Of a DNA stretch of 64,000 nucleotides, positions 9,302-40,632 are shown piece by piece. The stretch is from Nemertoderma westbladi. Lineage: Eukaryota; Animalia; Xenacoelomorpha. The notes beneath the pieces were generated by a model that saw only the letters and a program-made list of their open reading frames with translations, searched no databases and was not told the origin of the DNA. The translations under genes and the position numbers were made by a program. The stretch spans positions 45,664 through 109,663 of the forward strand of contig JAUCBJ010000267.1 of the NCBI GenBank assembly GCA_032718475.1. Reading direction: 5' to 3'. How positions within the stretch are numbered: the first letter of the stretch is position 1; every line of letters starts with the position of its first letter.

Positions 9302-11479
9302 TGATAAACAACCGCGACCTCTATACTAACAGCAGAACTGTTGAACAGACCAATACCCGTTAATATCCTTCTGCCAACCTAATAAGTTCTCGTCTAACCA
9401 ATAAGACACAAAGACTGCTCTACTGTTAAGTAAAGGGGCTCAGGAGCGTGATATTACTAAATTGTAAGGGTTGCTAAATACAAAACCGCTACTTACCGTT
9501 AGATGGCGCTAATCTGCCGTCCGCTAATATATTTACTAATTTTACACAACTCCTGCAAAATCGCTTGTTCCTTTCTCTACCGATTGCTCAATAGAGAGCT
9601 AACTGTTCGAATCTATGAGCCACGCGGGAATAACCAAAACAATAAACCCGAGTCGGCTCCCTAAGCTTACTTAAGACGAGTGCGAGAGGCCTTGCACTCA
9701 GAGTATTCTTACGCCTAATTCTATCACTTATTAAAGCACGCTATTACCTACGTCTTTCTAATCGCGAATACTGGGGTTTCTCTAACGTAATGTGTGAATG
9801 CGAGAATATTTAAATATCAAAAATGGTACAGTAATTGTCTCTCGTGGATAGTACCACTCTGGGTCTAAAATTGCCTGCAGCTGGCTTTAGGCCAGCAAAT
9901 CACTAGCGTTTCGTGCGTACCGAATAGTGCGTTCTAGCTGATTGCCCGCTAATGCGAATAACCGCTTAGCGTGAATAGTTTACAGTACTCTAATTATTAC
10001 TTTAGCTACTCTCCGCTATGTTGCGTACTAATTCTTAATTTTACTAATCAATTACAGTCACAAATATTTAACAGCGTACTAATTACTAAGAGTTCCAGAA
10101 TACGTAATTCTAATTTATCACGCAACAGGTTTCGCTAGTAATAGCCTAAATTGCCGTATTACTTTGACCTAATCAGTAACTAATTGTTGTAACTAAGAAA
10201 TAGAAATCAATCAAAGAGAAAAGAGCGCCTACCTAAACATTCACAATCATAGGCACACTTCAGTAACACACCAATCAGCATCAGCAATCACAGTTCGCAA
10301 TTATGCAGTTAACTACTGTATAGCCCACAATTATGCGACTCACTATTCGTACTACACGCTCAACGTTCGAAACGTTGTGATACGTGCAGGCCTCTCCCGG
10401 GTACATATAGGACTCCTAACTAACCTGATTCCCGCCCCCCTAATACTAAATAGAGACGAAACCTGGATCATCAGCCCCCTAATTGCCGTACCGGCGATTG
10501 GTCTGCGTACCACAGCGTTAACTTCCCGACCGCAACGGTGACCCCACGCCAGCGTTGCTCGCTTTGAATCCTCCGCTCTCCCTTAGTCGCCCAACCCCCC
10601 GATGTGCCCACCGCCCGCTGGCGCCTTAGCCCTCCATTACGCTAATAGCTACCGTAGCGGCGCATGCAAATCACAAAGTCTGACAGTCTCAGGAATCCCT
10701 TGGGATTATTGCGCAGAAAGGAATCACATAGAACCATCAATCAAAGGTAGAAATCATAGTTCGATTGTAATTTGCAGTAATCGAAGGAATTATTGAGAAA
10801 CACAAGCAAAGTAATCGCACTAGCAAATCATTCCAAGAAATTAATCAAATTAGCAAATTGCAGAAAATACGATATCCTAATACAAATTAGAGACAGCTCA
10901 GCAAGTAAATTGTAACAGGGGTGTGTCATGTGAGTGAGAGATTGATGATAGGCTCTACCGGCACACCGCCAATTTATAGGTGATCCGGGTGGGATGATGC
11001 AATAGGGTGACTCAATCGCTCTCCTATTGGCTCTCCAGTCCATGCTAGCATTAGACCAACCTGGAAGCAGTTAATCCAATAAGGAGGCCGGATTGTAGCC
11101 CTATGCCCTCAAATTATTACCATATATGGTAATGGATCACGTCTCTGGCTGCTGAATGGCCAGGACGGCGTCCCTATATGCTAGCCCTATCAAACTAATA
11201 TCAGCAAGCACAAAATCCAGGGTCCGAGTAAACTCGCTACCCTGGAACTATCTACATATATCCTAATACAAAATTACGTAGGTAGGGCTACATACTATAC
11301 AAAATGAATGGATGCAAATATATGGGCGTTTTAACTTCCTTACCTAAATGTCACCACACTGCGCCTTATCTAAATAATTATACTGCACAACGGACTAATA
11401 TTACGTACAGTATAACGGACTAATACTGCATACTGCATAATGGACTAATACTGTGGATACAGCGCCATATACCGTAACA
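9302..11479 (-). repeat. Element A 3' LTR (2178 bp)
   Basis: Matches 23915-26100 apart from one 8-bp indel and about 3 substitutions that I could see. Confidence 0.97.
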
Positions 11480-11640: not shown

Positions 11641-13473
11641 TTAAGTTTGGAAGGGAGTACCAAACCCGCGGGTTTGATTCCCGAACCACTTCTCCAAAGC
11701 TTCTGGCGTCGGATATTCCATCGACGGTCGGTCTCCCAAATCTCCGATGTTCTGTCGATATACTCCTTCGAATATCGCTAATCCTCTCCTCACCATCGAC
11801 GTATTCTCTAACGATTGGTTGAAGAACGGGGTTAAGAAACGCTTCATCACGTCGGATTGGATTCCCCCTTTCGAGCGAACGTATTGATCTCCTCCGAATA
11901 CCAATGGATGACGCTTCAAAACTCGTGCAACGATATCCGCTAATAAACAAGTCACCGTGTTCGACTCAAGCACCTAATAATATTGTAGCGACGCACGGGG
12001 TGGCGCGCAAATGTTCCAATACACTAACGCTTGCCGCTTGAAGTGGGATTTGAACTCCGCTCCCGGTGGCGTGTTGTATTCGCCATACGCCTCCTCGTAC
12101 TTCTTCTGCGTCTTCAACTTAAAGTCCCAATTATACAACAAGTGTGCTATAAAGCCCATACCAGTCTTGGCAGAGTTGGGATACTCCCTATAAATTCCAA
12201 TATCCTGTGCCCATAGCAACAATAGCTTGGTGTCGACAAACGGTCTCGGCAATCTATCTTCCAGATCAGTCATGGCGTTGAAGTCGCTCTCCAAATCGCT
12301 CTGGACTCCCGATCCCACCTTGACGTAATCTTGGTTGAGAATAGCCTCTCTAACTTTCTTGGGTAACATCCTGGCGTCGATACGCTCCGCTCCGTGCATA
12401 CCTCCTCGCCTGCATACCTCCAAAATCTGTTCCCTAGGATCCTTCCCCTTCCGATATTGTGTCGTTATGATGGGCTCCGGTCTCTCTCGATCCGCCCTCA
12501 CACGCATAAACACATGAGTCACACCATCGGCCGCACGAATTTGAATACACTTGCTAGTCAAGCATTCCTGATGGGACCCTCCTTCATTGTCGTAGAACAT
12601 CACTCTCCAATCCTGCAGTGATTCCTCCGTCTTCCTCCACTGACGCTGAATCTCATCTGATGGGGTCCACATGCGCTCGATCGCCTTGTGGTCATCATAT
12701 CGGGTATAAGAACCCTTCCTCCTCAGCCACGTCTGGTCTACCTCCTCGTCGTCTGGGAATGTAGCCACCGCGACCCATACTTTGATGTACTTATCCAACC
12801 ATCCGAATAGCTTACTCTCCTTCCCCGGAGCTCCAATCTTGTCCAAAGTGTCATAATCTGTGATCTGCATTGGGACATCACGCAAGAACTTCGCGCATAA
12901 AACTTCCCGTAGACAGTCAACGTTCCAATGGTCCGCCATTCTTACCATCGGCAAGAATCGTATCGCTTCTTGCGACTCCGGATGATCTACTAATATCGCA
13001 GGTTCGGTGCCGTCGGAATAATACACCGGTCCGGGTTGAGATACGACCTGTGGAACAAATCCGGTCACTCTCCTCGTCTCCTCTTGATGTCTATCCGCGG
13101 TCTTATTATACTCCGCTATCCTGTTCTCAAAGAACTCTTTCGCCTTCGCCGCTCGCTCCTCCTGCCGCAACGCGTCTATGTCGTCCTGATGCTCAGGCGT
13201 GAGGCTTCTCACTCGGTGAGGTGAAGTAAACGTAGTCCAGGGACTCGAGAGCTCCAAACCCGCGGGTTTGGTACCCGAGTCCCGCGCCGCTTCGCGCCGC
13301 GCCTCTAGATCCTTGTAGGCTCGGTACAGCGAAATGGCCGCTGCCGTCTCTATCAAACTGGGTGTCGAACAGGGTTTAATCTCCGTATACGGATCTAATG
13401 TCGTAACGGTCGGCGTAATGGGTCTCGGAGGTCGCTTTCCGCTGAAGTCGATACTGATCATCGGGTTGCTCAT
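11641..13473 (-). CDS. Element A accessory ORF with a DEDDy-like (WRN/EXD/Mut-7-type) 3'-5' exonuclease domain; 499 aa, in-frame TAG at 11974-11976, then 110 further open codons
   Basis: Motifs appear in the expected order: FYDNEG (ExoI DxE), CIQIRA, LPKKVREAILNQDYVKVGSGVQSDL (ExoII), FVDTK, GMGFIAHLL, W...LQYY*VLE (ExoIII-like). Recognised by eye only. Confidence 0.65.
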
Positions 13474-13554
13474 CGGGTAACCTCCCTCGTTATATCTAAG
13501 GAATTGGTGAGCTGGACATCGCGTTAATATCGGTTCCGGATGTTGCTCGTCTAG

Positions 13555-14043
13555 TCAGTCGGGAATCGCCACGTCCTGTTTATTCATGCATTCACCACAC
13601 TTGTAGAACAGCTTGTACACGCTGAAGACTTTCGGCGTCTCCTGATCCTCGCCTCGAGTCCTCCGATACAGGTGCATTCCGTCGAACTGGTCTCGGACTG
13701 CAGGTAGAGGCTCCTCGTGTCGTAAATACATATTCATATGGTATAGTCGTGCGATTTCCTCGTCCGGATCTGCGCTAATGTCGCACACGTCCAAAGCAAA
13801 GTCGTAGGGATACCGCGTGCGATACTCTCTCCGCAAAACTTCCATCCGGTCCCCCAACGCTCTCATTCTTTCTCTCCGTAATTCTTTATCATAACTTGGT
13901 TTATACTTCCCGTTCAGCTCCATCACGGACCGCCCATGGTAGTAAACGTTAGAGTCTTTACATCCTGGTCGCGCGAATGGTAGCTCCGCCTCCTCTCTGG
14001 CAGTAAATCCTCTGCGCGGTTGCGCTCTAATATCCCTCTCCAT
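13555..14043 (-). CDS. Element A accessory ORF, 162 aa, unknown function, C-terminal YxCxxC
   Basis: Clean ATG-to-stop ORF on the same strand as pol. It shares TRYP, MYL, PLPxV, FxxMxxY and YxCxEC motifs with the ORF at 37155-37862. Confidence 0.7.
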   Translation of the reverse strand: MERDIRAQPRRGFTAREEAELPFARPGCKDSNVYYHGRSVMELNGKYKPSYDKELRRERMRALGDRMEVLRREYRTRYPYDFALDVCDISADPDEEIARLYHMNMYLRHEEPLPAVRDQFDGMHLYRRTRGEDQETPKVFSVYKLFYKCGECMNKQDVAIPD

Positions 14044-14800
14044 TATGTTACGCGTATATACATATATATATATCCCAATAAGTGCCGTTACGTAACCAAT
14101 TACACTGTGGGTAAATCAGTTAGATGCCGCCGAAGGACAGACCTCCCGAACCCCCCCGCCTTCCAGCAGTTCAGGTTCGACTCTCTAGATCCCGTCTCTT
14201 CCTAACTAACTATCCTCTAACCTATTCCCATGCATAGCGCAAAAACTTTGGAGATAAACTGGCCGTGACCAACTCACTTTTTGATGCCCAAACTACTCCC
14301 ATTACTCGTACTAAACTACAGTAGTTAGAAAGGACCATAGCCACAATACTCGACTATACCAAACCCACAGGTTTGATAATCGAACATCACACATCCTGCA
14401 AACTACTGAGTGGGGTCCATGCACGCCTCTGGTGCTACTAACCTTTAGCACCTTAGTTGCACTGTTGGCACCAATCTGTGGAAGTTGCTAAACTCAATTT
14501 ACACTCCTACGTAATATAGCCGTCACCATGGTTTCTAAATGCTATTTTCCAGGCTTCACGACTTTCAAATTACTGTTATCTATAGACGAATTCTAAAACG
14601 CGTCTATACACAGCGTCTGGAATTGTCTTGGGTTCACTTCTAATTTTTAAAATTTTCTAATTTTCCAAAAAATTTTGAAAATAAAATTTTGTTTTGATAC
14701 CCACCAGACAAAACTCAACGCAAATCACCACAACCCCGCTCCTATGCATTTCCTTGTATTTGCATACGAGGAATGCATACGAAGTGAGTTGCGTCCAACA

Positions 14801-16552
14801 CTAACTCTGTTTTGAGGCAGGAGACAAATTATAATCTCCCGTCTCGATACGTGTCTCCTCTAATAACACAATATCTTGGACCGGTCGGTCCAAGGTGTGT
14901 AAACCATTAGTTTTACACCTTTTTGGGTGCGGACACTTGCACCTAATTTTCACAGTGACTGTGCGCACTATGTTTTGCACGTCTGGGTGTGTGTGCAAGA
15001 TCACTCCCGTCTCCCAATACTTTCTCTTGACAATGGGTTCGGTTATCAACACGTAATCTCCCCTTTGGAGACTCCGAACCGTTTTGTACCACTTTGTTCT
15101 GGTGGATATGGTGGGAAGATAGTATTCCCGCCAATATTCCCAGAATGTGTACGCCACAAACTGTGTTACTTTCCAGCTCTTACGACTATATAGGTCGGCA
15201 CTAATGGGTTCTGATGCCGGCACAAGAAATGCTGGACTCTGCATTAGCAAATGATTCGGCGTTAATGCAACACCGTCTGGCAACATAGCTATCGGCCTCG
15301 AGTTTAGGGTATGCTCGATTTCAATGAAAGCTGTGACCAGTTCGTCGTCGGTAAGTTGTTTGTTTACAGGCAATGTTTTGGCAATGGCCTGTTTTACAGA
15401 GCGAACTAAACGCTCCCAACTTCCTCCTCTCCAAGGACTTTCTGGAGTATTAAATCTCCATTCTACTCGTTGCGGCAAAAGTGCTGCAGAAATTTCCTTA
15501 TTCTGTGCTGCTTTATGAGCCGCGTTCAACTCGCTATTCCCTCCGACAAAGTTTGTACCCTTGTCAGAGTAGAACGCCTTTACTAGTCCTCTCCTGGCCA
15601 TAAATCTCTTCAAGGCCAGGAGCAGAGATTTGGTCGACATGTCTGCCACACGCTCGATATGTATGGCTCTACTCGCCATACATGTCAATAGCAGACCCCA
15701 TCGCTTGTGGGTCAGCCGTCCACTCTTTGCTTCAATCGGACCAAAACAATCCACCCCTGTGTTCGTAAAGGGTGGGTCATATGCCTGCACTCTCGCTTCC
15801 GGGAGTTCAGCCATCTCCTGTTCCAATACTCTGGCGTTCACCCTCTTGCAAACCAGACAGGCGTCATACATAGTGCCGACTGCCCTGCTTGGCTGCAATA
15901 GAATGAATCGCTGTCTCGCTGCCGACAAACAGTGTAACCTTCCCGCGTGATGCAACCTCTTATGTATATCCCATAGAATCGCTCTTTGCAATTCTATCGG
16001 GTAACTAGGGATTATCACTGGGAATCGAAACTGTAAGTTTATGTCGACAGTCTGGATTCTCGATCTATGACAAATCAAACCCTTATGGATTAATGGACTC
16101 CATTTTCTAAGGGGTTTATAGAGAACTGGTCGTTGAGCCGATAATAGATGGAATTCTTTAGGGAAGGCACACATTTGATAATATCTCAAATGCTTTAATT
16201 CCGCTTGATCAATCTCATCCTCTGTCAGAGGTTGTTTCAATTTCCGAATTCGCTCACTATTGGTGCTCAATGGTTCTCTCAAATGTTTCGAATGTTTTAA
16301 ACAAAGGTACGAAACGTATCGGCTTAACCACGCAGTTCTTTTACAAATTGTCAGCCAAGAGGCAGACGAATTTAGTAATTTGTCATAAACACTGCATGAC
16401 TCTAATGCCAGCGACGGTTGTCCGCTAACTAATGGAAGTTTCGAATCCAAACCCGCAGGTTTGGAAACCAAAGGATCCATTATGTCGGTCATTTTCTGTC
16501 CGTCACGCCAACTGTGACTCCGGTTTAGTCTGTAAGGGTGGTTTGATGTCAT
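14801..16552 (-). CDS. pol: Element A pol, integrase portion (frameshifted relative to the upstream RT/RNase H)
   Basis: HHCC motif (HKRLHHAG...CLVC) and catalytic motifs TGVDCFGP, YSDKGTNF and GGSWERLV, followed by a BEL-type C-terminus (LDRPVQDIVLL). Confidence 0.93.
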   Translation of the reverse strand: MTSNHPYRLNRSHSWRDGQKMTDIMDPLVSKPAGLDSKLPLVSGQPSLALESCSVYDKLLNSSASWLTICKRTAWLSRYVSYLCLKHSKHLREPLSTNSERIRKLKQPLTEDEIDQAELKHLRYYQMCAFPKEFHLLSAQRPVLYKPLRKWSPLIHKGLICHRSRIQTVDINLQFRFPVIIPSYPIELQRAILWDIHKRLHHAGRLHCLSAARQRFILLQPSRAVGTMYDACLVCKRVNARVLEQEMAELPEARVQAYDPPFTNTGVDCFGPIEAKSGRLTHKRWGLLLTCMASRAIHIERVADMSTKSLLLALKRFMARRGLVKAFYSDKGTNFVGGNSELNAAHKAAQNKEISAALLPQRVEWRFNTPESPWRGGSWERLVRSVKQAIAKTLPVNKQLTDDELVTAFIEIEHTLNSRPIAMLPDGVALTPNHLLMQSPAFLVPASEPISADLYSRKSWKVTQFVAYTFWEYWREYYLPTISTRTKWYKTVRSLQRGDYVLITEPIVKRKYWETGVILHTHPDVQNIVRTVTVKIRCKCPHPKRCKTNGLHTLDRPVQDIVLLEETRIETGDYNLSPASKQS

Positions 16553-17780
16553 AACTTACCCTTCCGGACCTAGTAGTCACGTAAGTCTGTTGGTCTGACA
16601 GGTCTCCGGGCCGCTCCAATAACTCTTCAGGCCGCTCCAATGACTCTTCAGGCCGCTCCAATGACTTAAGTTTGGCTTTAGACTTCGACTTAGAGACTTT
16701 CTCCACTTTGACTTCTGCATCTTCAGGCATCGGATTGGTCACTATCTTTAGTCGTTCTGGCCAATGTTCCTGTGTCCTCGTTAGAAAATCAGGTCCATGC
16801 AACCAAAACTCCTGCGACTCTTCCCGACAGAATTCCGCCGGCATTGCACCTCTCGAAGTTATGTCGGCCGGGTTTAACACTCCCGGACAATGTCTCCATT
16901 GTTCCTTCGTCGAAAAGTCAACGATCTGAGCGCGTCTGTTGGCCACAAATGTCTTTAGTGCAATATTGTCGGCCGCAATGTATACTAACACCAAGGATGC
17001 GTCCGTCCAATAGAATAAGGTCAATGTCGTGTCTAACTCCTCAATTATTTGCTTACTTACCTCGACCGAAACTACAGCCGCCTGTAACTCTGCACGAGGG
17101 ACAGTCATGTATTTGACCGGCATTGTCTTTGATCTAGAAGTCACAAAGGCCGTCTCAAATTTGTCCTGACTTACCTCTCGGCGAAGGTAGGCTACCATAC
17201 CAAAGCCGGTGTCACTTGCGTCACTGAATAAATGCAGCTCGAGATCAGCTGGAAATACCAGCTGATTCGGAAAGTAGGAACGGGGTACGTCTATGTTTTT
17301 CAATAGATGTAACTCGGCTTCCCACTCCCTCCACTGCTTTGCATGTATAGGAGATATTGGTTCGTCCCACTTTAAGTCGGACAACCAAATTTTCCTCATG
17401 CACGCTCGTGCCTGTAATATAACCGGACTGATAAAGTTCATCGGGTCAAATAGTCTACTCAATGTCGATAAGCAAATCCTCTTAGTCAAAACTTTGTCTG
17501 GGCTACTGGGCTCAAATCTAACTCTTACCTGGAACTTGTCTGAGTTCGGGTTCCAAGCGAGTCCCAGTACTCGCGCCATGGGGATTGGTTCTACCCCCAA
17601 TTCTATGTCTCCGCTCCCGCGATCCTTTACCGGGAACGATTCTAATAGGGCCTCCGAGTTAGTAGTGAACTTGGTCAGAGGAAATCCCCCTGTAGCCAAG
17701 CACTCTTGCAGGCCGTGAGCCACTTCTATGGCTTGTTCCGCCGTGTCCTTGGACACCAATCCGTCGTCCATGTAGAAGTT
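16503..17780 (-). CDS. pol: Element A pol, RT C-terminal half plus RNase H (in-frame continuation after the premature TGA at 17781-17783)
   Basis: Motifs NFYMDD, RVLGLAW, LFDPMN, LHLFSDAS, TVPRAELQAA, YWTDAS and NPADITSRG. Confidence 0.93.
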   Translation of the reverse strand, partial: NFYMDDGLVSKDTAEQAIEVAHGLQECLATGGFPLTKFTTNSEALLESFPVKDRGSGDIELGVEPIPMARVLGLAWNPNSDKFQVRVRFEPSSPDKVLTKRICLSTLSRLFDPMNFISPVILQARACMRKIWLSDLKWDEPISPIHAKQWREWEAELHLLKNIDVPRSYFPNQLVFPADLELHLFSDASDTGFGMVAYLRREVSQDKFETAFVTSRSKTMPVKYMTVPRAELQAAVVSVEVSKQIIEELDTTLTLFYWTDASLVLVYIAADNIALKTFVANRRAQIVDFSTKEQWRHCPGVLNPADITSRGAMPAEFCREESQEFWLHGPDFLTRTQEHWPERLKIVTNPMPEDAEVKVEKVSKSKSKAKLKSLERPEESLERPEELLERPGDLSDQQTYVTTRSGRVSYDIKPPLQTKPESQLA

Positions 17781-20700
17781 TCACAAGATGGACTCGATAA
17801 CCTCTACTGGGTACTTACCAATCTGGGCTGTTGCCGTTTTCTTTAGAACAAACAGCGTGCCATTTGGACTATCGCGGGCGCCAAATATCCTAACGTACAT
17901 TTGGTATGTAACCACTGGGCCGGATAAGTCTTCATTCTCGTACCAGAGAAAGCGAAGGCTATCCTGGTCTGCCTTACAGGCTCTTACCTGGTGGAACATC
18001 GCCTCGATGTCACAAGTAAATGCGAATCGCCGCTGTCTAAAACGTAACAGTATTCCGATCAAATAGTTATTCAGGTTGGGACCATCCATCAACTCTGAAT
18101 TCAGGGACATACCTCTATAGACTGCTGCGCAGTCGTTGACTACTCGGACTTTGTCAGGTTTGTCAGGGTGAGTCACATAGTGGTGTGGAAGGTAATAAGT
18201 CTGGTCTGTCACTAAGTCAGGGTCCTCTACCTTCCCAGCAAATCCCTTGGCGAAATAGTTGTTGATCTGGGCGCAATACTTCTCCCTAATGTCCGGATTC
18301 TTCAACAACCGAGCCCTTACTCCATTTAATCTTTTCAAGGCTAAGCTGTAGTTGTTCTCCAACTTAGGTGGTTGTCGACGCCACAACATTCCAACTTCAA
18401 AATGTCCAGTCGGTAGTAGACGTATGGTATCTTCCATCATCTCCAGCGACCGTTTCTCATCAGTAGACATGGCCAGGTCATATCCACCGGGTTCCATTGC
18501 GTCCCTATCCAGCCATTCGACGGTTCTGGCTCCTGTCTCGAGGTCCTGGCATATCAATTCCTTCTGTAATTCCTCCTCACTGTACTGGAAAATGTCTAGG
18601 TCTCGATATTTAGCCACTTGACCCTCCACTATTTCTGTATAAGTCAAAACGTTAGTCAGATAAGTAGCGTGGGCCGCTGAACCAGACCCACGGGTCTGAT
18701 AACAGTAGTCCTCGGGTTCACTATCTGTCCGGTCGTTATGAAGTGGTTCCGACAACCTAACATTATCGGGAATCAACTCCTCGTCCGACTCGCTAAAGTC
18801 ACTATAGTGGTCAATGCAGGTTCTCCTAAACTCGTCTATGTCTGGTGGTTCTACTAACGGTGGTTGAGTTATAGGCTGTAATTCGTCGTATCTGTCCATT
18901 GGCTTGTCGCCACCTGTAAACTCATAAGACATGGGTACTCTTGTATACCAACCTAGTATGGTCCTATGGGCATGTGGTCCATTGACATGCGGCTCAGCTG
19001 GTCTCGTTTCCCATATCTGGTGTGCGATCAGCTGTTCTGCACCAATTAACATAGAAACATTCCTATAACCTACCTGGTGTCTGGGTATCCTGAGCTTGTC
19101 AAAATACTCCTGTGCTATGGGACTCATCGGCGGCACCTTACCTAACTGCCTGCCGAATCCCTTCATAGCTAGACACTTAAATCCGTCCAATGGCAAAGCT
19201 TTCCGTTCTTGTCGAGTGTGTTGGTCTCTCGGAAGTAGGGAATCTAGTTCTACCGAAATTCTGTGTCCCTTGAGGTCTCCTACCCCGTGCATAGACTTCA
19301 ACTCTATTTGGATCTCCTCGGCGTCCTGGAAGCTAGAAACAGCTCTCGCCACTTCCTCGTCGATATACGATAATGTGGACGCAGTGTCCAACATCACATA
19401 TATTCGTTTCGATCCCTTATCTCCAGTGAGTTTCACCGGAATCACGCTAAATATTTCCGACGTGGCCGATGATAAATACGTCCGCGCGCTGGTCGATGAA
19501 CTATCCGCGGTGAAACCTTGGCAGGTCACTTCTCTCGCGCTCAACTCGCCATCCTCGTCCGACGAACCTGGTTGGTAACCATCGTCCTGGATGCCAGTGT
19601 ACGTATTCCTCCTTATCGATACGGGTTCTTTGCTCCCCTTCCTGTGAGGATTTCGCTGTAAGTAACGGTCCGTTGGGGTATGGAAATCCGCATGTAGCAA
19701 CTTGTGATGTAGTCTGCCGCATTCCATGCATCCGTCCTTGCTGTTCGGGCACTGCCGCCATACATGGCCTGGCGCAAGACATGCCCAACAGGTGTCCAAC
19801 GTCCGCACTTGAACTCTTCTCTGTTCCGAATTTAATTCTTTGAACCGTCTGCAACTATCTAACTTATGGTCGTCAGATCTTACCTCCTTTAGTAAACAGT
19901 ATTGGCAACCTACAAATCCATCCGGCAACTCCTGTTGCTTTAACCTAGGTCTATCTAACCGCTCACCTGACCATACTCGCGAGTCTGATCTAAAGGCTGG
20001 GGTATTCGAATTATATCTGTCTACTGAGTTATAAGTCACAGTGGTCCTGTCATCGTCAAAACTTACCATAGACTTACCGGTAACAGGTTTAGACTCCCTC
20101 ATATTCTCTTCTGAGAAGTTTGATTTCATCTCTGCTACTGCGTCTGTGGCTATCATGTCATGAATATGCTGAAGTGTCAACACCTTACCTTGGCCCTCCA
20201 ACTTATTCTCTAATTTGCGCCATTTCTGTCTGTAACGCATGTTTAGACGTCTTATTACGCTTTTCAAAACTTCGGCGTGATCACCATGATGAGGTAGATT
20301 CACCGTCCTCAAGATGTCCAATGCGTTCGAAATAGCGTTCGCTAAGTTCAACAGCTCTAACGGAGTTGTAATCCTTCCGCCCTTACCCAAGTCTTCTACT
20401 ATCGACTGCGCCATCTTCGTTTTATTCCCGTAGATGTCACTAAGCGTCTTCATCGCTAACTCAAATGCTCTTTCATTGCCGACGAAGTTATCAGCAATGG
20501 CTCTAGGTTCTCGATGGAGCATCTGAAGCAAATAGTTGAACTTCTCGTTGGGAGTAAAGGTGCTGTTGGTTAGCTGCTCGTCGACATAGGTTCTAAAGGT
20601 CCTCCAGTGCTTGTGGTTGCCCATAAACTTCTGGGGTTGTTGCGTCGGCAGTCCTTGCCTAGCAGCAAACTTACCTATGTCCCTAAGGGTTGCGTCATTC

Positions 20701-22754
20701 CGGGTTAACAAATGGTTTAGTTCCGCAGGGTTATTAAGTCTGGTCCTTTCCCGGTGGTTCCAACTTACCTGCTCCGCGTCCGTCCTTCTTTCCTTATAGT
20801 TTCGGGACTTCTGACGTCTCATGTCTTCCTTTTCATCGCTTGACTCGGTGTCAGTCCTTAGCGCTCGCGATGGTTTGCGCGCCGAGGCCCTGATCCAAGC
20901 ATCCTCAATAAATTTCTCTGCCGAATTTTCGAAATTGGGATTATGGATATTCGGGACAGGCGTCCTTACCTGAGGTCTATGTGGTATAGTCTCCTCCGAT
21001 ATGCGTACTCGTTGACTAGGCTGGACTTTATCTAACTCAGGCCTGCTGGGATTAGAATTACTTCTTACCTGGGCTGCTTCCTTTAACCGTAGGTTGCTAA
21101 GCATGTCCGTTATAGGTTGGATGTGCGGCGATATAGCTTGCGCTAAACTAGCACTTAACTCATCCCTCGTAATAAATTCCTGGCTAGGGTTCTGTTGTAT
21201 AGTCGGCTCTATCTGAGTAATCCGCTGTCTCTCATATGATCCCTCTTCCGGTTTAACCCGGAAGTTCTCCGTCGAACTGGGTCGGCGCTCCGTCCGCGTA
21301 TTCCAAACCCTCGGGTTCGGTTCGCCAAATACTCGGCCCGTCGGAGTTTCTTCTCTAAATTCTCCGTTGTCACGTTCGGTATACAGTGGTGCGGTGTTCC
21401 GATGACGTAGATCCTGGGCGATAGGTGAAGCACTAATACCAACTGGCGTGCGATATGTAGAGAACGGTTTAACGATCCGTGTACTCGTAATAGCTGGACC
21501 GGGTATAGGAATTCTGGTCGTCGTCGACTCGCGTATAGCCGGAGTTCTCGCTTCCTGTTCGGCCTTCTGCAGTGCGAACAGTTCTCGCAACTCAGTCCCT
21601 ACACTCGCCCTACATTCTTCGATCATTCGCATCCCCTTCTCGGCGATTTCGTTCGCCTGGTTCGTCCGCTCGGCTTCCTTCCGTGCTTCCTGTGCACGCA
21701 AAACTTCCGCCTGCTGTTCGTCTAGTCGGCGTCTTCTCTCCTCCGCCGATTTGTGAGAAACAAGGGATCTAGCACATATTACTTTACCTCGCGCGTGACT
21801 AACCTGGGAATCGCCGCTGTCTCTAGATGCATCGTCGGGTGGAGTTAACGCCCTCTGTTGAATGTTCTCCGTCGTCGGTAGCACCTGACCTGGTACCACC
21901 ACTCCATTCTGCATCAGCCAGCTAGTAACTTCCCTCTGATAACGGCGCTCTTCCTTATCTTGGATCTCTTCTCGCTCCACTAAGTCTCTCAACTCTACGT
22001 CACTCACCTGAGTCGCCTGCGCTTGTGATGTCCATAGAAGCCAGTTCTCCGTCCTAACTCGTCGGAATCGCTCCGATAACTCGCGGTGCTCCAACAAGGC
22101 TGCTAAAACCCTGTCGTAAATCCTCGTCGCCACGTCGCTCGACTGAGACTCTACTGCCTTCTTCGCTAGGACTGCAAGCTCCTCCGTCTGCTTGAATAAC
22201 GCTGAGTTATATCCTCTTCTAATCTCTACTAACTCTACCCTCCCGATGTTCGCTGGGTCAGCTAACATTTTCCTTACCTTGTCCGCCGTCCGAGTTATAT
22301 GTCCGGCATGCGCGCGAAGTTTCTTCTTTATCGCGATATCGAACTCTCTATCACTCACCTGACTTACGCTCGGTGGACTTGAAGGATTATTTCGGGAACT
22401 ACGGGTACTCCTAACAGCCGTCGGAACCACGGCACTTACCATACCCACAGGTCTGGAAACCGGGCTCCGGGCTCTCGCTTCTGCTACACTACCCTCCCTA
22501 TCACTCACCTCTGTCCGGGCTGCCGTACAGTCCTTCCTATCAGTAGCGGTAGGGGATCCTAATACTATTACCTGAGGCTGCTGTTCTTCCTCACTAGTCA
22601 CTGTCTCGTCCTCCTGTTCACTTACGTCAGCGTCACTCGCTGCGTCGTCATAGTCGGCATTGTCATCAACAGTAATATTTACGCTATCGTCAGTCGGCGG
22701 TCCAGCCGCCGTCTCGTAGCTGTCCTCTAGTGCCTCTTTGTCTGAGACACTCAT
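17781..22754 (-). CDS. gag-pol: Element A gag-protease-RT (N-terminal half) polyprotein, 1657 aa
   Basis: BEL gag core (KFMGN...W..F...EKFNYL), triple Cys/His array (CQYC..H....C, CWACLAPGHVWRQC, CMECGRLHHKLLH), protease VMLDTAS, and RT motifs YYLPHH, KVRVVND and DIEAMFHQV. Confidence 0.95.
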   Translation of the reverse strand: MSVSDKEALEDSYETAAGPPTDDSVNITVDDNADYDDAASDADVSEQEDETVTSEEEQQPQVIVLGSPTATDRKDCTAARTEVSDREGSVAEARARSPVSRPVGMVSAVVPTAVRSTRSSRNNPSSPPSVSQVSDREFDIAIKKKLRAHAGHITRTADKVRKMLADPANIGRVELVEIRRGYNSALFKQTEELAVLAKKAVESQSSDVATRIYDRVLAALLEHRELSERFRRVRTENWLLWTSQAQATQVSDVELRDLVEREEIQDKEERRYQREVTSWLMQNGVVVPGQVLPTTENIQQRALTPPDDASRDSGDSQVSHARGKVICARSLVSHKSAEERRRRLDEQQAEVLRAQEARKEAERTNQANEIAEKGMRMIEECRASVGTELRELFALQKAEQEARTPAIRESTTTRIPIPGPAITSTRIVKPFSTYRTPVGISASPIAQDLRHRNTAPLYTERDNGEFREETPTGRVFGEPNPRVWNTRTERRPSSTENFRVKPEEGSYERQRITQIEPTIQQNPSQEFITRDELSASLAQAISPHIQPITDMLSNLRLKEAAQVRSNSNPSRPELDKVQPSQRVRISEETIPHRPQVRTPVPNIHNPNFENSAEKFIEDAWIRASARKPSRALRTDTESSDEKEDMRRQKSRNYKERRTDAEQVSWNHRERTRLNNPAELNHLLTRNDATLRDIGKFAARQGLPTQQPQKFMGNHKHWRTFRTYVDEQLTNSTFTPNEKFNYLLQMLHREPRAIADNFVGNERAFELAMKTLSDIYGNKTKMAQSIVEDLGKGGRITTPLELLNLANAISNALDILRTVNLPHHGDHAEVLKSVIRRLNMRYRQKWRKLENKLEGQGKVLTLQHIHDMIATDAVAEMKSNFSEENMRESKPVTGKSMVSFDDDRTTVTYNSVDRYNSNTPAFRSDSRVWSGERLDRPRLKQQELPDGFVGCQYCLLKEVRSDDHKLDSCRRFKELNSEQRRVQVRTLDTCWACLAPGHVWRQCPNSKDGCMECGRLHHKLLHADFHTPTDRYLQRNPHRKGSKEPVSIRRNTYTGIQDDGYQPGSSDEDGELSAREVTCQGFTADSSSTSARTYLSSATSEIFSVIPVKLTGDKGSKRIYVMLDTASTLSYIDEEVARAVSSFQDAEEIQIELKSMHGVGDLKGHRISVELDSLLPRDQHTRQERKALPLDGFKCLAMKGFGRQLGKVPPMSPIAQEYFDKLRIPRHQVGYRNVSMLIGAEQLIAHQIWETRPAEPHVNGPHAHRTILGWYTRVPMSYEFTGGDKPMDRYDELQPITQPPLVEPPDIDEFRRTCIDHYSDFSESDEELIPDNVRLSEPLHNDRTDSEPEDYCYQTRGSGSAAHATYLTNVLTYTEIVEGQVAKYRDLDIFQYSEEELQKELICQDLETGARTVEWLDRDAMEPGGYDLAMSTDEKRSLEMMEDTIRLLPTGHFEVGMLWRRQPPKLENNYSLALKRLNGVRARLLKNPDIREKYCAQINNYFAKGFAGKVEDPDLVTDQTYYLPHHYVTHPDKPDKVRVVNDCAAVYRGMSLNSELMDGPNLNNYLIGILLRFRQRRFAFTCDIEAMFHQVRACKADQDSLRFLWYENEDLSGPVVTYQMYVRIFGARDSPNGTLFVLKKTATAQIGKYPVEVIESIL

Positions 22755-23904
22755 AGTCTAAATAATATTTGCCTTCCGGCAAAAATCTCGCAAAAGTTCG
22801 AGATATAATTATAATTTAACCGAAATACGGTCAAATTATTTGTCAAATAATCAGTTGGTCCAAATGTCAAATAAATTCGCAATACAATATTGTGAATTTA
22901 ATGGGGTATATAGTTATAGCAAATACTAACACAATATTTAAACAAAAATATTATTATATAGCTACTATATAATATTAAATACCGGTATAGCACAAAATAA
23001 CTCTGAATCTAATACAAAATATTCAAAATAGACTTGCCACCCGAATATTTCCAATTTTATATATAGCTCTAATCAACGCAATTTTAGTTTCAAATATTAT
23101 ATGTATCCACTAGCGCGTGGCTACATCTTCGGGTTGCGACTCTCTCTAACTCTCTCTCTAACTTGAGCGATTCAAAAAAACCATGGCCGGCTAAACCTAA
23201 ATATCCTAACTAATAAATTGAGTTCAGCTTCGCAGTTAAACAACCGGTAATTTTTTACTGCTTCCACAAACACACTGGCGCCAACAGAACAACTAACCTT
23301 GTTTGCTGTGAGATTCCACGTCCGCGTCCAAAGATTCAGGCCCTTCGCTGATTGCAAACCGAACCCGCAGACCCACACGAACCCCAAACTCAGAAGTCCC
23401 GTCTTGCCATGTATCTCCAGATGGTATAAAATAACTAAGCGGTTACCTAACATACCGGTACAAAACTCTAGAATTTTACAAATAATTTTGACCGAAAACT
23501 GAATTCTCGCAAACCTAGCTAATAATTTTCAAAAACTTACTAATTACAATTTGCCCTAAGGCCTAAGGAACTGCTGTATTCGCAATTAGCAAAACGCACT
23601 ACCGTACATCCACTGTATGCAGTACAGTAAGTAAAACAGTACACCAACCTAACAGCCTAATGATACTGTGTGTGGTACGGCAAACAAATGTCCTTCTACC
23701 GTACGCAGTAACAGCAATCAGCCTAATGTACTACTGTACTAGTGTACGCAGCCAGTGAATACTCTATCTGCCTTACTGTACGCAGTACAGCAAAGCAATA
23801 CTGCACGTATCACTGATACAAAGTATCAGTGATCTAAACTAATAGCAGTCTAAACTAACAGCCTAAGAATACACTATTGACCGCTGCAAGCAACAGCCAA
23901 TAAT

Positions 23905-23914
23905 CACGTATCAC
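23905..23914 (-). promoter_or_regulatory. Element A primer-binding-site position (GTGATACGTG), complementary to its own LTR rather than TGG-type
   Basis: Immediately follows the 5' LTR on the minus strand. Exact reverse complement of the minus-strand LTR segment CACGTATCAC (24998-25007). Confidence 0.75.
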
Positions 23915-26100
23915 TGATAAACAACCGCGACCTCTATACTAACAGCAGAACTGTTGAACAGACCAATACCCGTTAATATCCTTCTGCCAACCTAATAAGT
24001 TCTCGTCTAACCAATAAGACACAAAGACTGCTCTACTGTTAAGTAAAGGGGCTCAGGAGCGTGATATTACTAAATTGTAAGGGTTGCTAAATACAAAACC
24101 GCTACTTACCGTTAGATGGCGCTAATCTGCCGTCCGCTAATATATTTACTAATTTTACACAACCAGACAACTCCTGCAAAATCGCTTGTTCCTTTCTCTA
24201 CCGATTGCTCAATAGAGAGCTAACTGTTCGAATCTATGAGCCACGCGGGAATAACCAAAACAATAAACCCGAGTCGGCTCCCTAAGCTTACTTAAGACGA
24301 GTGCGAGAGGCCTTGCACTCAGAGTATTCTTACGCCTAATTCTATCACTTATTAAAGCACGCTATTACCTACGTCTTTCTAATCGCGAATACTGGGGTTT
24401 CTCTAACGTAATGTGTGAATGCGAGAATATTTAAATATCAAAAATGGTACAGTAATTGTCTCTCGTGGATAGTACCACTCTGGGTCTAAAATTGCCTGCA
24501 GCTGGCTTTAGGCCAGCAAATCACTAGCGTTTCGTGCGTACCGAATAGTGCGTTCTAGCTGATTGCCCGCTAATGCGAATAACCGCTTAGCGTGAATAGT
24601 TTACAGTACTCTAATTATTACTTTAGCTACTCTCCGCTATGCTGCGTACTAATTCTTAATTTTACTAATCAATTACAGTCACAAATATTTAACAGCGTAC
24701 TAATTACTAAGAGTTCCAGAATACGTAATTCTAATTTATCACGCAACAGGTTTCGCTAGTAATAGCCTAAATTGCCGTATTACTTTGACCTAATCAGTAA
24801 CTAATTGTTGTAACTAAGAAATAGAAATCAATCAAAGAGAAAAGAGCGCCTACCTAAACATTCACAATCATAGGCACACTTCAGTAACACACCAATCAGC
24901 ATCAGCAATCACAGTTCGCAATTATGCAGTTAACTACTGTATAGCCCACAATTATGCGACTCACTATTCGTACTACACGCTCAACGTTCGAAACGTTGTG
25001 ATACGTGCAGGCCTCTCCCGGGTACATATAGGACTCCTAACTAACCTGATTCCCGCCCCCCTAATACTAAATAGAGACGAAACCTGGATCATCAGCCCCC
25101 TAATTGCCGTACCGGCGATTGGTCTGCGTACCACAGCGTTAACTTCCCGACCGCAACGGTGACCCCACGCCAGCGTTGCTCGCTTTGAATCCTCCGCTCT
25201 CCCTTAGTCGCCCAACCCCCCGATGTGCCCACCGCCCGCTGGCGCCTTAGCCCTCCATTACGCTAATAGCTACCGTAGCGGCGCATGCAAATCACAAAGT
25301 CTGACAGTCTCAGGAATCCCTTGGGATTATTGCGCAGAAAGGAATCACATAGAACCATCAATCAAAGGTAGAAATCATAGTTCGATTGTAATTTGCAGTA
25401 ATCGAAGGAATTATTGAGAAACACAAGCAAAGTAATCGCACTAGCAAATCATTCCAAGAAATTAATCAAATTAGCAAATTGCAGAAAATACGATATCCTA
25501 ATACAAATTAGAGACAGCTCAGCAAGTAAATTGTAACAGGGGTGTGTCATGTGAGTGAGAGATTGATGATAGGCTCTACCGGCACACCGCCAATTTATAG
25601 GTGATCCGGGTGGGATGATGCAATAGGGTGACTCAATCGCTCTCCTATTGGCTCTCCAGTCCATGCTAGCATTAGACCAACCTGGAAGCAGTTAATCCAA
25701 TAAGGAGGCAGGATTGTAGCCCTATGCCCTCAAATAATTACCATATATGGTAATGGATCACGTCTCTGGCTGCTGAATGGCCAGGACGGCGTCCCTATAT
25801 GCTAGCCCTATCAAACTAATATCAGCAAGCACAAAATCCAGGGTCCGAGTAAACTCGCTACCCTGGAACTATCTACATATATCCTAATACAAAATTACGT
25901 AGGTAGGGCTACATACTATACAAAATGAATGGATGCAAATATATGGGCGTTTTAACTTCCTTACCTAAATGTCACCACACTGCGCCTTATCTAAATAATT
26001 ATACTGCACAACGGACTAATATTACGTACAGTATAACGGACTAATACTGCATACTGCATAATGGACTAATACTGTGGATACAGCGCCATATACCGTAACA
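23915..26100 (-). repeat. Element A 5' LTR (2186 bp)
   Basis: Minus strand reads TGTTACGG...GTTTATCA. Direct repeat of 9302-11479. Confidence 0.97.
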
Positions 26101-30536: not shown

Positions 30537-31722
30537 TGTAAAAGCTTTTGCGTCATTAACCGGTTATTTTCCCTTAAAGTACTCTGTAGTTGGTTTGCCA
30601 GGCATAAAAAGGCCGTGTCCTTGCTGTACTGGTGTTTTAGAGGACATAAAAGTCATTTCTTATGTATTTGTACTGTATTTGTACTTTAGAGGACATAATC
30701 CACAATCTCGTGACGCGATAAGCTAGATACTCTTGAAAACAGTGTCGCTACCATGACGATGGCTAACAGCTGATATTGCCACGTCGACGTTTCTTTGTTT
30801 CTTTGTTCTCTCGTTGTTCGGTTGACCAATCAGAGCGTTTGTTGTCTCTGTGTTGGAGGTGTATACAGAGGCTCAGTAGTTCAGTGTTATGTTTTTGCCC
30901 AGAGCCTAAGAACCGGCTTTTGGCACCTCCGTGTTTTCAGTTTTTAGTCTTACACTAGTAGGCTTAATTATAAGGACATATATCCGTTATCATAACATAA
31001 CTAAACATAACATACCATACCTAATCAAACAACCTGTGCATACTTTTATATTGTTATACTGCTATTTACTGTCAGTTCTTCATAATATGGTTGATGAATT
31101 ATTATATTTGGAATAACGATAAATAACCCCGAAAACCCAATATTCTTGATATACCGAAGGTAAGAGAGAAAGGTTACATATAACGATTGTGACTTATGTT
31201 AAAGTGGTTTAAAGTGAATCTAATGTTATTTGATAGACCCTACATGATTCGGTCCGTGTTCCTTTTATATGTGACTAAAATCAGTGAAGATCGGCAGATC
31301 AGTGTGCAGTATTGTGCAGCATTGTGTATGAGTGAGACTGATAACGAAGCATTTCCTAAAGAATGCGCCATATATGTGAATTGTAACTAAGCCATATCGT
31401 TGTGAGTAGTTTAAGTCATAACTCTGTTTATATAGATAGAGCGCCACGTCCTAAAGGAACTGTTAATATTTCCCGAAGGTGAATAATATTGTCAGAGATT
31501 ATATAATACTGTCAGTCGAATAATACATTAGGCTTACATAGCAATAAGATTAAGCCGTCGAACCCAATCTCCCGGGTATATCCAGCGGGTGAATGATCGC
31601 GCACAGATTGGTTTCGACTAGTGTAGTGAATCAAATACTTGTCATAGGCTAAAAGTAATTTATTATCTAGAAGACATCCTAATTTGGCGGGTTAAACTGC
31701 CAAAGGTCTGAAAGCGCGAACA
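30537..31722 (+). repeat. Element B 5' LTR (1186 bp)
   Basis: TGTAAAAGC...GCGCGAACA, repeated at 38334-39519 with about 3 visible substitutions. Confidence 0.96.
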
Positions 31723-31733
31723 ATAACGGATAT
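31723..31733 (+). promoter_or_regulatory. Element B primer-binding-site position (ATAACGGATAT), complementary to its own LTR
   Basis: Exact reverse complement of LTR segment ATATCCGTTAT at 30980-30990. Confidence 0.8.
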
Positions 31734-32074
31734 TTAGTCTGTATTGCAGTGTAGGCATTAAATACAGTTTAATATTGTTCTGGTAAGAACAATAACGGAT
31801 ATAGCTTCTGTATTGCAGTAGGCAATAAAGCTGAAGTACCGGCAACCGGTACCCAGTAGGCCTGACTACCTAACCACCCGGACCGGTACATACAGCAGTA
31901 CAGGTACAGCAGTATTATTCGATTTTGATAATTATATACCGGTAGGCCTTAATAATTAATCAGGGACTGCAGCCCTGGTTTTTTATTGAGATTTTTACTT
32001 ATTTCTGTCAAGTTTTATTTGTTTGTAGGCCAGTATTGAACAGAAGGCGTGTAAGTCTGATCAGATTGTACAGA

Positions 32075-32640
32075 CAATTTGTAGGCTGAGCTGTTGTCTG
32101 ATTGCTGTTAAGTCCGAACGGATTGCAGTGTGTGTAGAGCCTCTGTCCGATAAAGAACGGTTAGGAAGTAGGGGCAGCCAAAGCTGTAAGGTAAACCCCC
32201 AACTAAAGAATAAGTCGTACTACTGGGTTAGAACGCATACTACCTAATCATTTCGGAGTCTGCATGTCCTGTAGTTTATTTAGGCTTGAGAGTAGTCTGC
32301 CATCGTTTAGTCTGTACTTTGTTTGTGTAGTCTGTACAGGTAGCGTATAATATTTATTTAGATAATTTGTAGGCTGGATAGTTGTCTGGCTGTTATTAGG
32401 TCTGAACGGATTGCAGTGTGTGTAGAGCCTGTCCGATAAAGAACGGTTAGGAAGTAGGGGCAGCCAAAGCTGTAAGGTAAACCCCCATCTAAAGAATAAG
32501 TCGTACTACTGGGTTAGAACGCATACTACCTAATCATTTCGGAGTCTGCATGTCCTGTAGTTTATTTAGGCTTGATAGTAGTCTGTCAGTATTTGGTCTG
32601 CATTTTGTTTGAGTGGTTTGTACGCGTAGCGTAATATTTA
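32075..32640 (+). repeat. About 290-bp tandem duplication in the 5' leader of element B
   Basis: Two copies begin AATTTGTAGGCTG at about 32075 and 32363. The same duplication is present in C at about 40925-41500. Confidence 0.8.
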
Positions 32641-33953
32641 TTATTCAGAGTTTATGCGATTATTTGCCACATTCATTCCCCAAGTTTGTTCCTACAGTAA
32701 TTGTGTTTGTTATACATACCGCTATAGTTAAATTAACCCCGGTACTACACGGGCTGCTTGGCGTAGGTAAAGACTGGTGATTTTGTGCACCGGTCACTCC
32801 AGCAGATGCCGTGGTTCTTTTAACTGTTCAAGTATATTTAACTACTGATTATATGTTGTACAAGTACTCGTACCTAATTTAGGGTTTAGTGTACAGTGCT
32901 TTCCGAAAGTAATTAGTGTAGGCATTATATTTGTGTTGTAAAGTGGTTGATAGGCACGTTCGATTAGCTCTATTAACTTCTAGGTAGGGACACTCCGTGA
33001 TACATAACGTAGTACCTATATCGATACGGCTATAGGTCGTCAGGCGGTGGTATTTTCCTATCTGGACAACGCAGTGTATTTACTACTACGTATTATTTTC
33101 AAATAACCGCAGTACCCTGTCCGTTGTAATAACCAGATTTCTAACCCTTTGTTAGGCTGGTTTGTAGACTTCTTGTAAAATTACCCTGAAAATTTGTATT
33201 TTGTGTTTTTGTAAATTTTTGTGTTTATTTAGAGATTGTAATCTCACCCGAATTGTACGTAATTTGTAGTATTAAGTAACTTAGGTAAATTAGAATTATT
33301 TGTTTTAGTGTCCTATAAGTAACACTTCACTGAAAGCGCACCGCTTTGTGTAGTGATTACTCCCCAGAAATAATAACATTTATTTCAAACATTGACAAAA
33401 CCCATTAAACGGATATATATATATTATAAATCAACTCAAACGATTTATAAATAGTAGGCCTGCCATATAACAATTAGGTCTCAATATCAGTTGGACTACT
33501 GCTTAAATAACGGTAATAAAGTAAGTTAAAGTAACCAAGTAACCTTAAAATTCAGAAATTCAATTATTTAAAATAATTGATATACAGGTATCCACGATAG
33601 GCCTATTATATATTTATATTTGTGCTGAAATCATACCGGTATTCTGTAATTAATTCTAGTTAATAATTATACTTATATATCCTATAAGTGTAAACTGTAT
33701 ACCGGTATCCACGATAGGCCTATTATATATTTATATATATTTGTACTAAAATTATATACCGGTTTCTGTGAAAAACCTAGTCTGTAATAATACTTATATA
33801 TACTATAAGCATACCGGTATTCTAATATTATATATATCACGCTACACTGAGTAGCAGTATCGGTAATTAATTACTAGGCTAGCAGTTAATACTGAATTAC
33901 TAGACTTGCTTAGACTGTAATATAGCAGTAGACATTCAACTGTGTAAACAAAC

Positions 33954-36887: not shown

Positions 36888-37154
36888 TTATTATGTCAAT
36901 AAAACGCCTAAAGACCAGGTAAGTAAATTCAAGTCTCTAACCAATGACAGGAGAGAACAGGTAAGAAAAACTCCTCCTACGTCTCCCAAGAGAATTCAGG
37001 TGAGAAAGCCCGAGGAAAGAACGAACGTACACCACACAGCACATGTTAAAGTAAGTAACATCAAGCCCAAATGTGTGCTGTGCGATGGGCCCCACCGTTT
37101 AAATGCGTGTGATAAATTCCTGAGGAAATCACTAAAGGATAGACGTGAAGTCAT

Positions 37155-37862: not shown

Positions 37863-38333
37863 ACGCTATTCTACAAAGATCAGAAAGGAAACCTACGTTT
37901 GTTCAGATAAACGTAAGTTGTAACAGCAAGTCCAAGCGATAAACGAATTGTCTTTATCTCAGTTCGATTGTGAAATCCAGAATCTCTAAGAAGATATCGC
38001 ACTTAGACAACCCCATTCTCTGCGAGAGTTTTTGGATGAACGTATCCAGCTACGAGCGGAGGAAAATCAGCTCGAGGAGAAGCATATCGAAACGGCGGAT
38101 ACCCCTACCATAATCCTACACCTTCTGATGCAATCATATTGCACCCTTCACCCAGGATTTATAGCCCTCCTAGTAAAGTGGCTCCCCCCAAAGAGAAAAG
38201 GACTCTTGCTAGCCTCAAAAAACTGCGTAAACGCCGTCTGCGTAAGAAAGACTAACTGTTTAGAGTATTTTTATATTTTAGAAACTGTGATTTGTTATAT
38301 TTTATAGACTTAAATCCCATTTTCTGGGAGCGG

Positions 38334-40621: not shown

Positions 40622-40632
40622 ATAACAGATAT
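40622..40632 (+). promoter_or_regulatory. Element C primer-binding-site position (ATAACAGATAT), complementary to its own LTR
   Basis: Exact reverse complement of ATATCTGTTAT at 39909-39919, with a compensatory change relative to element B. Confidence 0.8.

Follow-up and report, generated by a model that had tools for sequence, protein, structure and literature searches.

The open reading frame at 13555..14043 is the front end of a long additional gene, here called ORF2, in a giant BEL/Pao retrotransposon (element A). The product of this gene is predicted to be soluble and to contain a module that binds Zn, followed by a coiled coil and by a 3'-5' exonuclease domain of the WRN/mut-7-like type. 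In the reading that we favor, the coiled coil would oligomerize the ORF2 protein, the protein would act in trans, and its DEDD domain would trim or bind the 3' ends of small RNAs or transcripts, thereby blunting host small-RNA silencing. Taken as a whole, we give this statement a probability of about 0.42.

A giant BEL/Pao element in a satellite array

The window (the whole stretch of DNA that was analyzed, 64 kb) is mostly satellite: self-BLAST revealed a 48-bp satellite array broken up by LTR elements. Element A is flanked by a 5-bp target duplication, GGGAT, within this satellite and comprises the following features:

9302-26100, minus strand: element A, 16,799 bp, with LTRs of 2.18 kb
23915..26100, minus strand: 5' LTR
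17781..22757, minus strand: first gag-pol frame, with a DUF1759 gag domain and an in-frame stop at its end
16503..17780, minus strand: second piece of pol, with Peptidase_A17 (Pao RNase H region, E=2.9e-40)
14801..16555, minus strand: integrase, which includes DUF5641 and follows a frameshift near 16507
9302..11479, minus strand: 3' LTR, 2.18 kb, 99.5% identical to the 5' LTR (three substitutions and one indel)

Pfam searches recovered the BEL/Pao domain set in order (DUF1759, Peptidase_A17, Integrase_H2C2, and DUF5641), and element A has the BEL-type gag and pol, in the order PR-RT-RH-IN and between LTRs, that mark the Belpaoviridae. According to the ICTV, BEL/Pao elements are 4.2 to 10 kb long with LTRs of 0.2 to 1.2 kb, are primed by tRNA (18-nt primer-binding site [PBS]), and carry env-like genes as their extra genes (PMC8742986). 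At 16,799 bp and with 2.18-kb LTRs, element A exceeds these size ranges, which are descriptive rather than clade defining. Its integrase is 28 to 42% identical to the 120 relatives listed, nearly all of which carry DUF5641, and forms a long single branch (2.6 to 2.8 changes per column) in a midpoint-rooted tree of element A and 100 of these 120 matches, which was built from them without named references for the Pao, BEL, Tas, Suzu, Sinbad/Sailor, Dan, and Flow clades. A Cys/His-rich insertion lies inside DUF5641 near the integrase C terminus (~14880-14930, minus strand).

Family A is multicopy: 10,472 contigs of run X1 map to 6.5 kb of it (depth being no measure of copy number), and 289 places across these 6.5 kb are variable at a threshold of ≥10%. 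The copy in the window carries three in-frame stops (11974, 13555, and 17781) and the frameshift at 16507, which is absent from most other copies, yet its LTRs are only three substitutions apart; its damage is greater than its apparent age would suggest. Some other genomic copies have deletions that take out part or most of ORF2 (12171-14155, 13314-14225, and 13568-13898). Elsewhere in the window, satellites with 50-bp and 13-bp units lie at 59440-61073 and 61713-62101, and an open-ended frame of 353 aa at 62940-64000 looks by eye like BEL gag N termini; it has no Pfam match and is possibly part of a fourth element.

ORF2 extends far beyond a stop private to this copy

An earlier note on this DNA had treated the frame as a short protein of unrecognized kind ending at 13555. 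Neither the boundary nor the length stands, as past the TGA at that position the frame is open for 526 more codons:

13555..14043, minus strand: flagged ORF, codons 1-163 of ORF2 (162 aa from the ATG), ending at TGA
11974..13554, minus strand: ORF2 codons 164-690, in frame to a TAG, with coding-like codon use and third positions making up 13/18 listed variable places
11641..11973, minus strand: 110 open codons past the TAG, probably the ORF2 C terminus (~800 codons in total)

The TGA at 13555-13557 is private to the copy in the window. Position 13557 was compared across contigs covering 13470-13650 in four runs from two samples (X1, X3, and X5 from one and X2 from the other), and other copies differ from the window there in 40413/40485, 58227/58227, 57124/57272, and 45.7/45.7 depth units; 99.7 to 100% of contig depth thus reads otherwise, and the 162-aa protein is therefore not a real product. 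The context of the stop, TGA CTAG, resembles what we take to be a known read-through motif, and one could accordingly imagine a short 162-aa protein accompanied by a programmed read-through product at UGA-CUAG. With the stop missing from nearly all other-copy depth and the base after it also varying (27 to 53% of depth in X1 to X3), we consider programmed read-through ruled out and leave it next to no probability.

Purifying selection acts on the ORF2 frame before and after the TGA alike. Of 25 variants listed around the stop, with the row for the stop itself left out, 21 leave the ORF2 protein unchanged, compared to an expected synonymous fraction of 0.30 (p=4e-8); the same is true of 10 of 14 further variant rows, which come from a listing of 40 of the 289 variable places. 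Variable places favor third positions both upstream (14/18) and downstream (13/18) of the stop. Behind the TAG at 11974-11976, the 110 open codons have an in-frame codon score of 0.10 (compared to -0.53 and -0.07) and a GC content of 48%, compared to 28% in the 3' untranslated region. Because of this coding-like codon use and GC content, ORF2, which spans at least 689 codons, probably runs to ~800 in all.

A domain shared by two divergent families

Two further elements in the window, B and C, carry related frames:

30537..39519, plus strand: element B, a young insertion (LTRs 99.7% identical) lacking pol, located 48 bp inside the 5' LTR of element C, with a GTACT target duplication
37149..37862, plus strand: ORF2 remnant of element B, 5' truncated by a deletion, with the whole shared domain present and the nuclease part not detected
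43709..48406, plus strand: gag-protease-pol remnant of element C, with the RT core and integrase missing
50321..51099, plus strand: decayed ORF2 of element C, in two frames
13348..13833, minus strand: domain common to A and B/C (aa 71-232 of ORF2 in A), with C149-x2-C152...C176-x2-H179 as a predicted Zn site

The frames in A (13555-14043) and B (37149-37862) exist with the motifs that the earlier note had quoted, and their resemblance is significant. BLASTP aligned the flagged ORF with the B ORF at E=8e-6 (31% identity over 77 columns), and the Smith-Waterman score of 84 was reached by none of 2,000 shuffles (maximum, 66). When the 271 frames of ≥60 aa in the window were ranked, the self-match was followed directly by B (84) and C (77), the next best scoring 48. 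With the TGA read as X, the A-B score rises from 84 to 120, and the read-through sequence extends the match by three blocks: CxxH, F.RY..G, and TLDP. The shared domain thus spans the TGA and completes a CxxC...CxxH motif, of which the earlier note, in suggesting a Zn site, had seen the CxxC half; the CxxH half is encoded past the TGA. C149, C152, C176, and H179, which form a CCCH-type set, are aligned in A, B, and C, and no amino acid change at these four residues occurs among the listed variants. The module is likely to bind Zn, as judged from this motif, even with no match to a Zn-finger family in Pfam, PHROG, or the PDB.

The proposal of an old accessory gene common to two divergent BEL families is supported by the degree of identity. 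The domain of A is 26% identical to that of B/C over 179 columns (tblastn E=3.7e-8), similar to gag (26 to 27%) and PR-RT (26%), which fits coinheritance with the element; self-BLAST found no nucleotide match between the LTRs of A and those of B/C, as had been reported. The placement of both ORFs between pol and the 3' LTR is correct for A and, taken literally, incorrect for B, which has no pol. Nor is the B ORF complete: an internal deletion (B 37160/37166 corresponding to C 47064/50482) has removed its 5' part, leaving a remnant. In C, the shared domain is frameshifted and has a 32-nt deletion. Both elements are decayed relatives with deletions in pol, and no nuclease part was detected in either. 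B-versus-C substitutions are without third-position excess (17/8/10) and so give no sign of selection in these two elements.

Homologues of ORF2 were sought widely, and none was found by a word-seeded search at near lengths (7994 candidates), with the A/B/C alignment at longer lengths (5626 candidates), by phmmer against 1.84 billion representatives, in metagenome and viral contigs, in Pfam, PHROGs, and NCBIfam, or in six frames of 87 other BEL loci (best E, 0.25). The N-terminal module that A has in common with B/C is without a homologue in these libraries and constitutes a new protein domain. A match to rotavirus VP4 among PDB sequences (E=0.025) was judged to be chance, and PDB sequences otherwise gave no match to ORF2.

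Upstream of the shared domain, the first 70 aa of A had no significant match in the upstream frames of C. Decayed frames in C at 49530-50480 open with an ATG that follows a predicted acceptor, and they contain a hydrophobic stretch with basic residues after it; the N terminus of ORF2 in C may once have been longer than that in A.

A predicted WRN/mut-7-like exonuclease domain in the C-terminal part

Behind the shared domain, two further features are predicted in ORF2:

13057..13197, minus strand: predicted long helix/coiled coil (aa 283-329; low-confidence model), with a weak match to C behind its stop (5/500 shuffles)
11944..12612, minus strand: predicted WRN/mut-7-like DEDD 3'-5' exonuclease domain (aa ~478-700), with candidate acidic residues D485, E487, and D583 and an uncertain ExoIII

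In the ESM Atlas, the nearest neighbors of the 526-aa frame are Werner-like exonucleases (0.82). For aa 470-689, the value is 0.92, with PF01612 in 24 of 30 matches, 166 of 256 features, and a recognition value of 2733; same-family matches typically have 170 features, just above the 166 found here, and shuffled proteins reach 0.9 in 4 to 10% of cases. Prokaryotic PF01612 genes were also compared, and a WRN-like profile was drawn from 12 bacterial proteins whose top PDB matches are WRN, EXD2, and mut-7. Aligned with ORF2, this profile gave E=0.012 over 93 columns in hhalign and E=0.005 in hmmsearch, where the same ORF2 stretch was the best in 129,596 residues and 3/1000 shuffles scored as high. 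One RNase D scored 65 against ORF2 (0/500 shuffles; BLASTP E=2e-5); a clear score was obtained with only one of nine bacterial PF01612 members. An RNase D profile gave E=0.012 (1.0 bits, compared to as much as 5.0 bits for shuffles), and the NrnC and PolA profiles gave nothing against ORF2.

Collinear blocks from the bacterial alignment fall in order on VMFYDNE (ExoI, D485/E487), two strands, KVGSG...D583 (ExoII), and PFVDT; this block-order score was matched by 7/200 shuffles and 0/60 BEL pol proteins. The D-x-E of ExoI and the D of ExoII (D485, E487, and D583) are in the right order and context, with weak statistics. For ExoIII, the canonical Y-x3-D is absent, one candidate (aa 638-653) being without an Asp and the other (aa 676-693) straddling the TAG. 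The alignment requires two long insertions, and a cheap-gap profile alignment was not significant (61/300 and 14/300 shuffles). Structure prediction was of low confidence (AlphaFold pLDDT of 34 and 36); a Foldseek search with such a model returned nothing at E≤0.001, VIA-align matched the helix at 280-330 only (Z≤5.6), and the long helix at aa 283-329 is the sole feature that the model supports.

These results could also mean that the C-terminal part is no exonuclease, the Atlas and profile matches being chance and ORF2 wholly unclassified. Negative Pfam, NCBIfam, PDB-sequence, and phmmer searches agree with this (the Pfam and NCBIfam scans of the domain gave nothing at E≤10, and the PF01612 cutoff was not reached), as do the weak profile statistics. 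Against it, language-model features, two profile methods, and the block-order test converge on the same stretch and the same family, and we regard a chance match as distinctly unlikely. An exonuclease fold in the C-terminal part of ORF2 is probable on these grounds, and the chances that the domain is catalytically active are about even.

The nuclease part was not detected in B or C, both of which end shortly behind the region of the long helix in A and which are two decayed copies only. Compared with frames behind the B stop, aa 233-689 of A gave at best 18/500 shuffles, and compared with C, 5/500, both weak with nine frames tried. Since B and C share the N-terminal domain without a nuclease part, the conserved core would not be the nuclease.

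ORF2 occupies the env position and is not env-like

ORF2 starts 758 nt past the integrase stop, in a position where an env gene might be expected. One predicted signal precedes it:

14105..14123, minus strand: predicted branch point with a splice acceptor, ending 61 nt upstream of the ORF2 start codon and the only such site in the 757-nt spacer

Sites of this kind arise by chance in the last 100 nt in 88/5000 shuffles and anywhere in 651/5000. Element C has a similar acceptor site (49509-49524), a few bases before an ATG; a pattern match for a splice donor was not found in the leader of element A. On balance, ORF2 is probably expressed from a spliced subgenomic RNA, as env genes are. A six-codon upstream ORF at 14041-14064 ends in TAATG, overlapping the ORF2 start, and sits in a TA repeat of copy-variable length.

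Both this position and the predicted acceptor would suit an env-like or FAST-like cell entry protein. However, ORF2 has no signal peptide, membrane helix, or N-terminal hydrophobic stretch (top 19-residue hydropathy, 0.88, with 1.34 in the tail), contains one N-glycosylation sequon in aa 1-689, and has no family match. Without a signal peptide or membrane helix, ORF2 is not env, and a cell entry function is extremely improbable.

Self-complementary primer sites in A, B, and C

No TGG-type tRNA PBS (scored by a TGG start) was found in A, B, or C, and no tRNA genes were found within the 64-kb window. Directly behind each 5' LTR lies instead a stretch of 10 to 11 nt complementary to the LTR itself:

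23905..23914, minus strand: primer-binding position of A, 10 nt complementary to LTR positions 24998-25007 (10/2000 shuffles)
31723..31733, plus strand: primer-binding position of B, 11 nt complementary to LTR positions 30980-30990 (3/2000 shuffles)
40622..40632, plus strand: primer-binding position of C, 11 nt complementary to 39909-39919 (4/2000 shuffles)

Between B and C, both partners of the primer site show a compensatory change. From this arrangement we infer Tf1-type self-priming for the primer site of A. The LTR end and primer site are repeated ~70 to 100 nt downstream in A (23780-23914) and B (31718-31829), and in A this repeat forms part of a hairpin.

As controls, 13 BEL loci with a definable 5' LTR end (out of 87) were examined. 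The distance from the integrase match to the 3' LTR in these loci is 141 to 783 nt, leaving no room for ORF2; their best complements are 0 to 10 nt, with only L013 reaching 10 (at offset 3), and a TGG start is absent in 12 of the 13. The suggested co-occurrence of the accessory gene with a self-complementary PBS is thus seen in all three elements, A, B, and C. These represent only two independent families in which ORF2 accompanies a clean self-complement, a number too small to demonstrate a link.

With such a site in all three elements, the compensatory change in B and C, and the processing of structured RNA 3' ends by DEDDy nucleases that is described in PMC5408684, the exonuclease might serve replication, either by trimming the unpaired 3' tail of the self-primer down to the 10- to 11-bp duplex or by polishing cDNA ends. 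Several observations weigh against this role. B and C have the primer site and no detectable nuclease part (though, being pol-less, they need help in trans); the control locus L013, with no room for ORF2, has a 10-nt complement; and expression apart from Gag-Pol makes packaging of the protein less obvious. To our knowledge, Tf1 itself self-primes without such an ORF, and Tf1-type priming requires no extra enzyme. We therefore regard a replicative role as unlikely.

Weighing roles for the ORF2 protein

The size of element A raises the question of proofreading, for which the ExoN of nidoviruses, with their large RNA genomes, provides an analogy. A 3'-5' exonuclease could proofread for the reverse transcriptase and so allow an RNA genome of ~15 kb; in line with this, A measures 16.8 kb versus 4.2 to 10 kb for the family, and PF01612 includes the proofreading domains of DNA polymerase A. 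However, the ORF2 match lies on the WRN/RNase D side rather than with PolA, and the copies are variable (289 places in 6.5 kb at ≥10%), making this role very unlikely.

A targeting or tethering function is conceivable as well, in which the Zn module and an inactive, nucleic acid-binding nuclease fold would steer integration into the 48-bp satellite. The insertion points of A (9301/26101) and C (30488) differ by no more than 2 bp in their phase on the 48-bp unit, a possible target preference; the Zn module is the part kept by both families, and ExoIII is noncanonical. Yet these are only two insertion events in a window that is mostly satellite, and B is inserted in the C LTR. Targeting, moreover, is normally a function of the integrase, as established for chromoviruses and Ty elements. 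We rate tethering as quite improbable.

We prefer a counter-silencing role for three reasons. A protein that is expressed on its own does not have to be packaged; Tf1-type priming, as noted above, needs no extra enzyme; and proteins of the same fold act in small-RNA pathways, among them Nibbler as well as mut-7 and EXD1. For the last two, this activity is described in PMC5408684.

Comparison with known systems

The closest parallel is found in bdelloid rotifers, where DEDDy ORF3s occur in the Vesta and Juno LTR elements and in Terminons, their function being reported as untested (Rodriguez, Kenefick, Arkhipova 2017, PMC5408684). As described in that paper, the ORF3s of Vesta and Juno are, like ORF2, additional sense ORFs located where env would lie in an LTR element, and they have an RNase D/WRN/mut-7-like DEDD fold (predicted in the case of ORF2) with a noncanonical acidic motif (DEED in bdelloids). 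ORF2 differs in its carrier, a BEL/Pao element, and in its multidomain makeup, which includes a predicted coiled coil and an orphan module with the CxxC...CxxH motif, whereas the bdelloid DEDDy ORFs lack coiled-coil and transmembrane domains. It is also under clear purifying selection, unlike the bdelloid ORF3s, for which the same paper gives no significant departure from neutrality. The comparison is one of descriptions rather than of sequences. Compared with WRN exonuclease, EXD2, mut-7/Nibbler, and EXD1 (PF01612, DnaQ-like), ORF2 has the same predicted fold and the same order of ExoI, strands, KVGxG...D ExoII, and FVD, but it falls below the Pfam threshold, has long insertions and a noncanonical ExoIII, and is fused to an orphan N-terminal module.

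Among the Belpaoviridae (PMC8742986), element A is conventional in its LTR-gag-PR-RT-RH-IN order, DUF1759/Peptidase_A17/DUF5641 domains, 5-bp target duplication, and third gene position, and it is unlike them in its length (16.8 kb), its 2.2-kb LTRs, the lack of a tRNA-type PBS, a third gene that is not env-like, and an integrase distant from every relative that was found. The env-like ORFs known from BEL/Pao elements (roo F-type, Tas/Cer7, and chuvirus-like glycoproteins) likewise lie between pol and the 3' LTR with probable spliced expression (PMC13524379 and PMC554778); ORF2 differs from them in having no signal peptide, membrane anchor, or sequence similarity. The Ty3/gypsy elements Tf1 and Tj1 belong to another superfamily, and we know of no extra ORF like ORF2 in them. 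They share with A, B, and C a primer site complementary to a short 5' LTR stretch, and PMC4600332 outlines the self-priming mechanism of Tf1.

In the openly accessible literature covered (titles and the beginnings of abstracts, with Repbase and Dfam outside its scope), neither an exonuclease ORF nor self-priming was found for any BEL/Pao element. The word "exonuclease" has 0 occurrences in the available text of PMC3118150 and of PMC8556966; the element set of the former could hold relatives. The comparison also took in portions of PMC2774666, PMC3601003, PMC6431247, PMC2678813, and bioRxiv 10.1101/2025.03.14.642691.

Tentatively, and at somewhat less than even odds, element A may represent an undescribed, deep-branching lineage of giant BEL/Pao elements in which Tf1-style self-priming replaces tRNA and a new Zn module with a captured WRN/mut-7-like exonuclease replaces env, either maturing the self-primer or disarming silencing. 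If this is true, LTR elements would have captured a DEDD exonuclease a second time, independently of the bdelloid case, and the carrier would be a thriving BEL/Pao family with a selected, nuclease-like accessory gene, in a group otherwise described with env as its only extra gene. ORF2 would then offer a testable handle on how an animal retrotransposon meets small-RNA silencing or on tRNA-free priming.

Other BEL loci yielded two minor observations. Marine metagenome BEL elements (L013, L018, L023, L024, L030, L054, L071, L079, L081, and L084) in many cases have no TGG-type PBS, and several begin with a GTTCGA-like motif. Seven loci (L081-L087) place a BEL/Pao integrase in contigs of bacterial metagenome-assembled genomes, most likely through eukaryotic contamination.
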